Below are positions 43,850 through 47,509 of a stretch of 64,000 nt of DNA, one piece after another. Numbering within the stretch: position 1 is the stretch's first letter; each line of letters begins with the position of its first letter. Both the position numbers and the translations under genes were made by a program. The stretch is from NCBI GenBank assembly GCA_951406725.2, contig OX597840.1, positions 124,001 through 188,000 of the forward strand, read 5' to 3'. Source of the DNA: Octopus vulgaris. Taxonomy: Eukaryota. Under the pieces are notes generated by a model that saw nothing but the letters and a program-made list of their open reading frames with translations, ran no database searches and had not been told where the DNA came from.

Positions 43850-44168
43850 GTACACACATAAGCACATACACATACATCCATGTATACACACACAAACACA
43901 CACATATACGTACACGCAACCCAAACGCATAATTACATACACGCGCACACACATTCATACATATACATGTACATACATCCCAATACACACACACACGCCT
44001 ATACACACATACACACACGTACATACATACACGCAAACACATAGAAACATATAGACCCACCCACAAACACACACATACACGCACACACAACCCAAACGCA
44101 TACATACATACATGCACACACACATGCATATATATACATGCACATACACCACAATACACACACATGCA
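43850..44168. repeat. ~170-180 bp CA-rich minisatellite, left part (continues at 47510-47900)
   Basis: The anchor caacccaaacgcata occurs at ~43917, 44087, 47601 and 47780. Confidence 0.8.
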
Positions 44169-47100
44169 ACCTCTCGAAAGAGCTGTTCTTCACTCCTACT
44201 CCAGAGTGTGGGCTGCGGGGGTCACTCCGAAAAGCTCTATCTGCGACGTTTTCATCTCAATCGAAGGAGAGAGGCTTTCTCCATCCGGGTTGCGGATCCG
44301 TGGAATAAGCTGCCGGACGAGATAGTGAAGATGCCGACGACCGCTCGGTTCAAAGTCTCTCTTGACCAGAAATGGCCTGAACTCTTTGCATGAACACCCT
44401 CCCCGTACATAACTCCCTGTCCCCCTACATGGCCTCACATCATCATAAGCGGAAAGTGCAACTTCTCGAAAGAGCTGTTCTTCACTCCTGCTCCAGAGCG
44501 TCGGCTGCGGGGTCACTCCGAAAAGCTCTATCTGCGACGATTTCATCTCAATCGAAGGAGAGGGGCTTTCTCCGTCCGGGTTGCGGATCCGTGGAATAAG
44601 CTGCCGGACGAGATAGTGAAGATGCCGACGACCGCTTGGTTCAAAGTCTCCCTTGGCCACAAATGGCCTGAACTCTTTGCATGAACACCCTCCCCGTACA
44701 TAACTTCCTGTCCCCCTACATGGCCTCACAACATCATAAGCGGAAAGTGTAACCTCTCGAAAGAGCTGTTCTTCACTCCTGCTCCAGAGCGTCGGCTGCG
44801 GGCTCACTCCGAAAAGCTTTATCTGCGACGTTTTCATCTCAATCGAAGGAGAGGGGCTTTCTCCGTCCGGGTTGCGGATCCGTGGAATAAGCTGCCGGAC
44901 GAGATAGTGAAGATGCCGACGACCGCTTGGTTCAAAGTTCCCCTTGGCCACAAATAGCCTGAACTCTTTGCATGAACACCTTCCCCGTACATAACTCCCT
45001 GTCCCCCTACATGGCCTCACACCATCATAAGCGGAAAGTATAACCTCTCGAAAGAGCTGTTCTTCACTCCTGCTCCAGAGTGTGGGCTGCGGGCTCACTC
45101 CGAAAAGCTCTATCTGCGACGTTTTCATCTCAATCGAAGGAGAGGGGCTTTCTCCGTACGGGTTGCGGATCCGTGGAATAAGCTGCCGGACGAGATAGTG
45201 AAGATGCCGACGACCGCTCGGTTCAAAGTCTCTCTTGACCAGAAATGGCCTGAACTCTTTGCATGAACACCTTCCCCGTACATAACTCCCTGTCCCCCTA
45301 CATGGCCTCACACCATCATAAGCGGAAAGTATAACCTCTCGAAAGAGCTGTTCTTCACTCCTGCTCCAGAGCGTCGGCTGCGGGGTCACTCCGAAAAGCT
45401 CTATCTGCGACGTTTTCATCTCAATCGAAGGAGAGGGGCTTTCTCCGTACGGGTTGCAGTTCCGTGGAATAAGCTGCCGGACAAGATAGCGAAGATGCCG
45501 ACGACCGCTTGGTTCAAAGTCTCCCTTGGCCACAAATGGCCTGAACTCTTTGCATGAACACCCTCCCCGTACATAACTCCCTGTCCCCCTACATGGCCTC
45601 ACATCATCATAAGCGGAAAGTGCAACTTCTCGAAAGAGCTGTTCTTCACTCCTGCTCCAGAGCGTCGGCTGCGGGGTCACTCCGAAAAGCTCTATCTGCG
45701 ACGTTTTCATCTCAATCGAAGGAGAGGGGCTTTCTCCGTACGGGTTGCGGATCCGTGGAATAAGCAGCCGGACGAGATAGTGAAGATGCCGACGACCGCT
45801 TGGTTCAAAGTCTCCCTTGGCCACAAATAGCCTGAACTCTTTGCATGAACACCTTCCCCGTACATAACTCCCTGTCCCCCTACATGGCCTCACATCATCA
45901 TAAGCGGAAAGTGCAACTTCTCGAAAGAGCTGTTCTTCACTCCTGCTCCAGAGCGTCGGCTGCGGGGGTCACTCCGAAAAGCTCTATCTGCGACGTTTTC
46001 ATCTCAATCGAAGGAGAGGGGCTTTCTCCGTACGGGTTGCGGATCCATGGAATAAGCTGCCGGACAAGATAGTGAAGATGCCGACGACCGCTTGGTTCAA
46101 AGTCTCCTTGGCCACAAATGGCCTGAACTCTTTGCATGAACACCCTCCCGTACATAACTCCCTGTCCCCCTACATGGCCTCACATCATCATAAGCGGAAA
46201 GTGCAACTTCTCGAAAGAGCTGTTCTTCACTCCTGCTCCAGAGCGTCGGCTGCGGGGGTCACTCCGAAAAGCTCTATCTGCGACGATTTCATCTCAATCG
46301 AAGGAGAGAGGCTTTCTCCGTCCGGGTTGCGGATCCGTGGAATAAGCTGCCGGACAAGATAGTGAAGATACCGACGACCGCTTGGTTCAAAGTCTCCCTT
46401 GGCCACAAATGGCCTGAACTCTTTGCATGAACACCTTCCCCGTACATAACTCCCTGTCCCCCTACATGGCCTCACATCATCATAAGCGGAAAGTGCAACT
46501 TCTCGAAAGAGCTGTTCTTCACTCCTGCTCCAGAGCGTCGGCTGCGGGGGTCACTCCGAAAAGCTCTATCTGCGACGATTTCATCTCAATCGAAGGAGAG
46601 GGGCTTTCTCCGTCCGGGTTGCGGATCCGTGGAATAAGCAGCCGGACGAGATAGTGAAGATGCCGACGACCGCTTGGTTCAAAGTCTCCCTTGGCCACAA
46701 ATGGCCTGAACTCTTTGCATGAACACCTTCCCCGTACATAACTCTCTGTCCCCCTACATGGCCTCACATCATCATAAGCGGAAAGTGCAACTTCTCGAAA
46801 GAGCTGTTCTTCACTCCTGCTCCAGAGCGTCGGCTGCGGGGTCACTCCGAAAAGCTCTATCTGCGACGATTTCATCTCAATCGAAGGAGAGGGGCTTTCT
46901 CCGTCCGGGTTGCGGATCCGTGGAATAAGCAGCCGGACGAGATAGTGAAGATGCCGACGACCGCTTGGTTCAAAGTCTCCCTTGGCCACAAATGGCCTGA
47001 ACTCTTTGCATGAACACCTTCCCCGTACATAACTCTCTGTCCCCCTACATGGCCTCACATCATCATAAGCGGAAAGTGCAACTTCTCGAAAGAGCTGTTC

Positions 47101-47509
47101 TTCACTCCTGCTCCAGAGCGTCGGCTGCGGGGGTCACTCCGAAAAGCTCTATCTGCGACGATTTCATCTCAATCGAAGGAGAGGGGCTTTCTCCGTCCGG
47201 GTTGCGGATCCGTGGAATAAGCAGCCGGACGAGATAGTGAAGATGCCGACAACCGCTCGGTTCAAAGTCTCTCTTGGCCACAAATGGCCTGAACTCTTTG
47301 CATGAACACCCTCCCTGTACATAACACCATGTCCCCCTACATGGCCTTGCTTTTTGCTTTTTGAACCATGACTGCTCGGTTCAAAGTCTCTCTTGACCAG
47401 AAATGGCCTGAACTCTTTGCATGAACACCCTCCCTGTACATAACTCCATGTCCCCCTACATGGCCTTGCTATTTGCTTTCTGAGCCAAAAAATTAACTAA
47501 CTAACTAAC
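44165..47509 (+). mobile_element. Tandem array of 11 x ~291-bp units derived from a CR1/L2-type LINE 3' end, finishing with a real LINE tail
   Basis: Unit junctions at 44436, 44727, 45018, 45309, 45600, 45891, 46181, 46473, 46765 and 47056. A unit encodes HIIISGKCNFSKELFFTPAPERRLRGHSEKLYLRRFHLNRRRGAFSVRVADPWNKLPDEIVKMPTTAWFKVSLGHKWPELFA* (RGHxxKL...FSxRVxxxWNxLP...FKxxL, the ORF2 C-terminus) plus 42 nt of UTR. The array ends ...gagccaaaaaattaactaactaactaac. Confidence 0.93.

Follow-up and report, generated by a model that had tools for sequence, protein, structure and literature searches.

A 64,000-bp stretch of the Octopus vulgaris genome (assembly GCA_951406725.2, contig OX597840.1, positions 124,001 to 188,000 of the forward strand; hereafter the window, whose own numbering we use throughout) contains a 3.3-kb block in which the 3' end of a long interspersed nuclear element (LINE) is repeated head to tail in eleven units of about 291 bp. 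In the features that we tested this array works like a nascent retroposon-derived satellite, a kind of repeat that is already known. We favour, with moderate confidence, the explanation that the block is a minisatellite seeded by a LINE: a founder of two or three 3' ends would have been joined at insertion, likely by template jumping, and would then have expanded locally.

The repeated part of the block has a tandem period of 291 bp, with 10.9 copies at 44165-47347, 96% matches and a Tandem Repeats Finder (TRF) score of 5817, and the quality of the match is far beyond chance. A unit that is in frame consists of the last 82 codons of the LINE's second open reading frame (ORF2), a TGA stop codon and 42 nt of the 3' untranslated region (UTR), just as a first-pass annotation of this DNA had described it. 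That annotation counted 11 units of 290-292 bp; the length is right for U2 to U11 and wrong for U1, which has 271 bp and starts 21 bp inside the unit, close to the 20 bp first estimated. It also reported ten identical junctions between the UTR and upstream ORF2. The breakpoint is indeed the same in 10 of 10, and the quoted letters (tacatggcct followed by cacatcatc) are exact in only 7 of 10, since U3 has cacaac and both U4 and U5 have cacacc. Finally, the end of the array was said to run on into the true UTR and the tail. It does end in both, with a twelfth piece of 119 bp standing between U11 and the tail; this piece and its separate junction had been overlooked. Only the terminal copy keeps the full UTR plus tail.

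The units are not uniform. Pairs of units differ by 0-17 substitutions (mean 10.4, or 3.6%), which lie in linked blocks, and several units have broken frames: an additional frame-breaking G is present in 5 of 11 and a premature TAG in 2 of 11. At one extreme, U9 and U10 differ by no substitution at all and are distinguished by a G-run only.

The identity of the unit as LINE sequence, also proposed in the first pass, is supported by protein matches to the C-terminus of an ORF2 with endonuclease and reverse transcriptase. The unit peptide (P0001) is 82% identical to P0002, an O. vulgaris gene model; P0002 is 45% identical to P0009, a protein with the domains RVT_1 and Exo_endo_phos_2; and P0001 itself aligns to residues 854-927 of P0009, at the ORF2 C-terminus, with 31% identity over 74 residues (E 2e-9). 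These similarities support an assignment of the unit to the 3' end of an APE-type non-LTR retrotransposon (LTR, long terminal repeat), that is, a LINE, and the block has the 5' truncation, the simple-repeat tail and the clean insertion into a target that are hallmarks of such elements. The reverse transcriptase domain is absent from the window. The element is putatively CR1-like rather than L2, a label suggested by its C-terminal motifs and by the activity of CR1 in this species. CR1 is listed among the recently active LINE groups of O. vulgaris in PMC13282606. The family is large, with 11,081, 7,679 and 705 contigs matched in sequencing runs X1, X2 and X9, respectively (the last of which we guess to be RNA). 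Its copies vary in their tails, which are CGAA, TTGAA, CTTAA or CTAA-type repeats after a short A run, and a tail of the array's type is present among the family contigs of X2. Searches by blastn and tblastn found no further copies of this LINE in the window.

The hallmarks of insertion enclose the whole 3.3-kb block. The block interrupts a minisatellite (Table 1), and the four nucleotides TGCA at 44165-44168 belong equally to this target and to the LINE start. The edges of the two flanks overlap by 2 nt (CA), giving a target duplication of 0-2 bp, and when the flanks are joined, a neighbouring minisatellite unit is restored without loss. PMC2881922 describes a tail, 5' microhomology and an intact target as usual marks of target-primed reverse transcription. 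Because the block has a tail, 4 nt of 5' microhomology and a target that continues in register with an overlap of 0-2 bp, we infer that it was inserted by this process.

Table 1. Features of the LINE 3'-end array and its surroundings, in window coordinates.
Feature	Position	Strand	Description
Left flank	43830..44168		CA-rich minisatellite, period about 171 bp; insertion target
U1	44165..44435	+	271 bp, 5'-truncated edge unit, haplotype 'a'
U2-U11	44436..47347	+	ten 290-292-bp units, mosaics of haplotypes 'a' and 'b'
Junctions of U1-U11	after 44435, 44726, 45017, 45308, 45599, 45890, 46180, 46472, 46764, 47055		
Antisense open frame	44196..45968	-	590 codons, spans six units
Predicted UTR hairpin	47327..47344 (U11), 47446-47463 (twelfth piece)	+	6 bp, intact in both
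Rest of true 3' UTR after U11	47348..47368	+	21 nt, ends at first A of would-be tail start
Twelfth piece	47369..47487	+	119 bp, ORF2 end and full UTR, own junction
LINE tail	47487..47509	+	A6-TTAAC-(TAAC)3
Right flank	47509..47886		same minisatellite, period about 179 bp, continues in register

We turn now to the variation among the units, and compare it with simulated star decay at the observed divergence, under CpG rates of x1, x10 and x30 with 3000 runs each. The array has 19 shared substitution columns, 16 of which are not CpG transitions. The simulations produced at most 9 non-CpG shared columns, with means of 1.8, 0.4 and 0.1 at the three CpG rates. Furthermore, of 136 pairs of biallelic columns, 60 are incompatible under the four-gamete test, which corresponds to a minimum of 6 exchanges, and units that lie farther apart differ more from each other (rho 0.29, p 0.036, Mantel test). 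The variants are shared, recombined and neighbour-biased, and we therefore conclude that local duplication and exchange have happened.

The junction itself carries a record of its origin. Two alleles, at the columns of 47316 and 47329, are common to all 10 junction-side UTRs and missing from U11 and from the twelfth piece, and they are present regardless of the haplotype of the unit body. Thus, the 291-bp junction likely arose a single time. Ten independent jumps could not have made ten identical joins, and this one junction was likely copied.

The alleles of the unit bodies can be compared with polymorphisms of the LINE family in X1 and X2. Within 47119-47329, 4 of 12 shared non-CpG columns fall at family polymorphisms, where 0.74 would be expected (p 0.003); this test uses contig depth and not allele frequency, among the best 40 of 44 rows. 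One family allele set occurs in U1 and U4 and the other set in most of the remaining units, and the 5' end of U3 matches two dispersed copies. P0005 and P0036, two annotated dispersed copies in O. vulgaris, were excluded at the 47119 and 47122 columns, where they are uninformative (synonymous on their strand). The match between unit alleles and family polymorphisms therefore requires at least two donors, or ectopic conversion. The most distinct haplotypes are held by the edge units. At 0.09 per 25 million years, the rate given in PMC13282606, the array would be at most about 5 million years old, and younger if its founders differed.

Our favoured explanation, a few joined LINE 3' ends followed by local expansion, would assemble the block in the following way. 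Target-primed reverse transcription would begin at the tail and copy 119 nt (piece c). Synthesis would move to the extreme 3' end of a second RNA, b, unless b and c were joined already in the source, and 312 nt of b would be copied. Helped by 2-3 nt of microhomology, it would then switch to a further RNA, a, entering it 21 nt short of the 3' end; a would be copied for 271 nt and then joined to the target. The single junction would become ten, and the haplotypes would be shuffled, as the repeats a and b underwent unequal crossing-over or slippage. If the founder was built as a + b (+ c), each inner unit would begin as b and end as a, as the two alleles common to all junction-side UTRs indicate. 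The permuted start of U1 would simply mean that the cut in a left it 21 nt shorter than b, and no special template would be required. The joined 3' ends likely came from separate members of a single, abundant LINE family.

Parts of this scheme were anticipated in the first-pass annotation. It argued soundly that a single truncated insert undergoing slippage has no source for the 21 bp missing from U1, and its suggestion of a multimer formed at or near insertion by 'repeated template re-priming' agrees with ours; a founder of two or three pieces suffices, and neither an 11-mer nor a circle is required. A check of the junction for microhomology, which it had proposed, gave just 2-3 nt in the parent sequence upstream of the breakpoint. 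We infer the template jump from this anatomy, and a nested insertion with a 98-bp duplication would yield the same anatomy. The second junction, between U11's UTR and the twelfth piece, sits exactly at the boundary of UTR and tail, which is where end-to-end template jumps are expected according to PMC11371274 and PMC2881922.

Joints that go back to an upstream point within the LINE 3' end are found in the family. There are 5 distinct ones, with differing breakpoints, one of them being the array's own. A joint from 47329 to 47061 in X1 defines a unit of about 270 bp and has a depth of 469, roughly 6-12 times that of low-depth joints; it represents either an independent array or a deletion derivative. 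The others run from 47156 to 47098 (X1), from 47351 to 47332 (X1 and X2) and from 47300 to 47270 (X2), and one of these three has a depth of 383. Tandem duplications of this LINE 3' end recur in the family. Elsewhere in the window, at 23443-24002, a 384-bp element resembling a short interspersed nuclear element (SINE), 96% identical to 8256-8638, is followed directly by a copy of its own last 170 bp (92%). We count this doubled retroposon 3' end together with the family joints as support for the reading that we favour.

The number of places at which the 291-bp junction occurs bears directly on whether the array was built where it now lies. We queried the contigs with 47030-47368, which has the junction inside it, so that its signal appears only as depth in the first two bins, the first of which lies wholly on the UTR side. 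The depth there is 4922 in X1, 2471 in X2 and 0 in X9, and the unit body reaches 2-4 million in the first two of these runs; summed contig depth is no copy number, and these values are ambiguous in that 13 contigs of X1 and 7 of X2 fit two places. When unitigs are modelled for this array and no other, the expected value is 20-33 times single-copy depth; we observe 42-52 times (X2) and 63-125 times (X1) the depth of low-depth joints, or half as much if those joints are heterozygous. This fits tens of junction copies in one to a few arrays and no high-copy satellite. The annotated dispersed copies that cross the breakpoint all continue into ORF2 (3 of 3) and none into the UTR (0 of 3). A search with the junction-centred antisense peptide, a weak one given that gene models seldom cover such repeats, returned 1 match of 1 candidate, and a second search returned 1 among 1.84 billion representatives; both were P0005, a non-junction copy.

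Several observations weigh against our reading. If the reference joints are single-copy and homozygous, the junction-side depth exceeds the prediction for one array about 2-6 times in X1 and about 1.3-2.6 times in X2. The junction may not be unique to this locus; contig depth fits one to a few arrays. The 119-bp junction (joint from 47368 to 47255) is present in X9 at a depth of 18 while the side of the 291-bp junction is without depth there; the same joint is uninformative in X1 and X2, where its short side has some 22 aligned nt and is possibly too short to be reported. The joint from 47329 to 47061 in X1 begins 4-5 nt from the breakpoint of the array and may hint at a preferred site. Among the units, the Mantel test gave a weak signal, and the limits of depth and rows given above apply to the comparison with family polymorphisms. 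The family alleles in the array could come from ectopic gene conversion, and the mosaic pattern could be inherited from a source array elsewhere. Finally, our model requires two truncation points no more than 21 nt apart.

A number of these points would follow if the array had formed earlier at another locus and been transcribed and retrotransposed as a single RNA by the LINE machinery, which would have recognised its intact 3' end. The 5' end of U1 would then be a chance truncation, and a good part of the mosaic would have been inherited. We regard this as unlikely. It would account for the enclosure of all 3.3 kb within one set of insertion hallmarks and for junction-side depths in X1 and X2 at or over the expectation for a single array; the presence in X9 of the 119-bp junction without the 291-bp side fits a source that is transcribed and whose 3' end is doubled; and the near-identical joint in X1 is amplified. 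The junction-side depth is, however, about 0.1% of that of the family body, far from high-copy, and with heterozygous reference joints its excess would shrink or disappear. In X9, which has 705 family contigs, the depth over 47030-47053 is zero. The junction is seen in none of the three annotated dispersed copies, the two peptide searches recovered one protein each, and the concentration of distinct haplotypes at the edge units is what one expects of local founders.

A bolder form of the same idea, on which we place an equally low probability, is that a tail-bearing LINE 3'-end array moves as a unit, the LINE enzyme retrotransposing entire multimeric RNAs, and that the family has seeded such arrays repeatedly at a preferred point, at the columns of 47056 and about 47060. 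These two breakpoints lie just 3' or 5' of the predicted UTR hairpin, which ends 3 nt before the junction point and is disrupted in U1 to U10 by one common change; its predicted stability is no better than that of shuffled sequence (z about -0.8 to -0.9). If the idea were true, one junction would have spread to several loci, with varied copy numbers and start phases, and the result would be a mobile satellite made of LINE ORF2 and UTR alone, a direct route from retrotransposition to satellite dispersal.

Rather improbable, in our judgement, is a two-step origin at the DNA level, in which b was inserted into a 271-bp copy a with a 98-bp duplication, or the 5' end was later lost by a microhomology-mediated deletion, with expansion following in either case. 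In the nested insertion, the duplicated 98 bp would be the end of U1 and the twelfth piece. These two differ at 4 positions, as against 6 of 98 (9 of 119) between the twelfth piece and U11, and they share 'a' alleles at the 47258-47281 columns. The contrast of 4 with 6 is small, the shared alleles are the majority alleles of the family, and a target duplication of 98 bp far exceeds the 0-2 bp of the outer site. The 4-nt microhomology at the 5' edge could be the trace of a later deletion, yet such a deletion must stop exactly at the insertion point, given that the flank is in register, and it leaves two donors unexplained.

The circular template raised in the first-pass annotation fares worse. 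On this view a single circle of 291 nt, RNA or DNA, was reverse-transcribed in rolling fashion into an 11-mer at insertion, and a circle does match both the tenfold repetition of one breakpoint and the permuted start; circular templates have been proposed for retrozymes (PMC7229834) and for pseudogenes derived from circular RNAs (PMC4897178). A single template predicts near-identical units that decay independently. The observed variation is not star-like: it is shared, recombined and neighbour-biased, and it includes two family haplotypes. The tail, the true UTR and the 119-bp piece lie off the circle, so that template switches are needed anyway. As those two sources describe it, circle-derived repeats need a ribozyme or back-splicing, respectively. 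None of 4227 Rfam families identified a ribozyme in 44100-45100 at E up to 5, all 9 matches being far below the gathering score. At the junction there is no GT after the UTR point and no AG before the ORF2 point, nor any splice signal in register on the antisense strand, and X9 lacks junction-side depth. We consider a rolling circle as the sole source largely refuted, and very unlikely. An assembly artefact is hardly credible: only a G-run separates U9 from U10, and several 1-bp homopolymer differences (U7, G-run) resemble long-read errors, but the units have structured, linked haplotypes, the flanks are in register, the second junction occurs in the independent run X9, and junction-side depth is present in X1 and X2.

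Returning to the proposed LINE-seeded minisatellite, we can compare it with known systems. Like other tandem repeats derived from retroposons, the array has partial units head to tail, an extended terminal unit and turnover by exchange. The chicken HinfI (SCR1) repeat (Li and Leung 2006, as reported in PMC9659126) likewise contains LINE sequence, in this case the 3' UTR of CR1 together with a portion of its ORF2. There the CR1 part is described as embedded in the repeat, whereas the octopus unit is pure LINE 3' end in 11 copies, within a single insertion whose two outer junctions and tail are preserved. The same source describes the common satellite of cetaceans, from an L1 3' end, and a satellite from the HeT-A 3' region. 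In both, the monomer again comes from the 3'-terminal part of a non-LTR element; those satellites are large and mature, in contrast to the octopus array, which is short and at the stage of nucleation. The squamate sSat repeats, according to PMC10702118, have units of 70-290 nt made of part of a retroposon in few to many copies, with heterogeneous short loci, and their origin is explained there by duplication and unequal recombination. They are similar in scale and in having one terminal unit that reaches the element's end. Their source is a SINE, whereas the octopus array comes from a LINE, has a shorter leading unit and shows two donor haplotypes.

For the seeding step, the closest model is the R2 reverse transcriptase, for which PMC11371274 and PMC2881922 describe how a truncated cDNA is joined, head to tail, with a different RNA at its 3' end. 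At the UTR/tail boundary, the 119-bp junction has this form. The 291-bp junction, 21 nt inside the 3' end, is unlike the end-to-end jumps of R2, and jumping, known for R2 in vitro and in cells, is suggested for the octopus LINE family by analogy. Retrozymes and circular-RNA-derived pseudogenes also form tandem or permuted copies, which are ascribed to reverse transcription from circular RNA; the octopus array differs from them in that it has neither a hammerhead nor any other ribozyme and lacks signals for back-splicing, in its mixture of haplotypes and in its linear LINE tail. A literature search by title and abstract opening, outside subscription journals and supplements, found no octopus report of such an array.

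Some further features of the block, the family and the window may be recorded here. No function is proposed for the block. Its long antisense open frame is a by-product of a 97-codon unit without stops on that frame; we rejected it as a gene, the frame being absent from the protein collection searched and its Pfam matches including 0 passing stretches. The same frame is annotated as 'hypothetical protein' in P0005 and P0036, and these annotations are likely false gene models. A gene model of the pipefish Stigmatopora argus (P0006) ends in a LINE ORF2 C-terminus that shares 65% identity with octopus P0002, well beyond the 30-49% of the other 29 matches, and that the model joins to a domain resembling D-glutamate cyclase; horizontal transfer is a possible cause of this resemblance. 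The junction pattern had 0 matches among metagenome contigs, and a scan of metagenome proteins gave 8 loci with 38-61% identity over short stretches, which do not belong to this LINE family. The window as a whole is rich in tandem repeats (239 TRF rows), and tandem expansion is common there; a (GTAT)n microsatellite of 3.1 kb, for instance, occupies 13539-16647 with 777 copies at 96%. A dispersed element of about 400 bp occurs at 8838-9235, 10394-10794, 33541-33952, 37451-37853, 51024-51362 and 63626-64000, its copies being 76-91% alike, and short palindromic elements lie at 52011-52325, 63022-63253 and 40840-41080.

As read here, the array changes no general view. It would be a snapshot, well preserved, of a LINE in the act of seeding a tandem repeat, in which one can still read both outer junctions, the founder junction and the haplotypes of two donors. 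The seed that it suggests is template jumping, and mature satellites rarely let such a step be seen.

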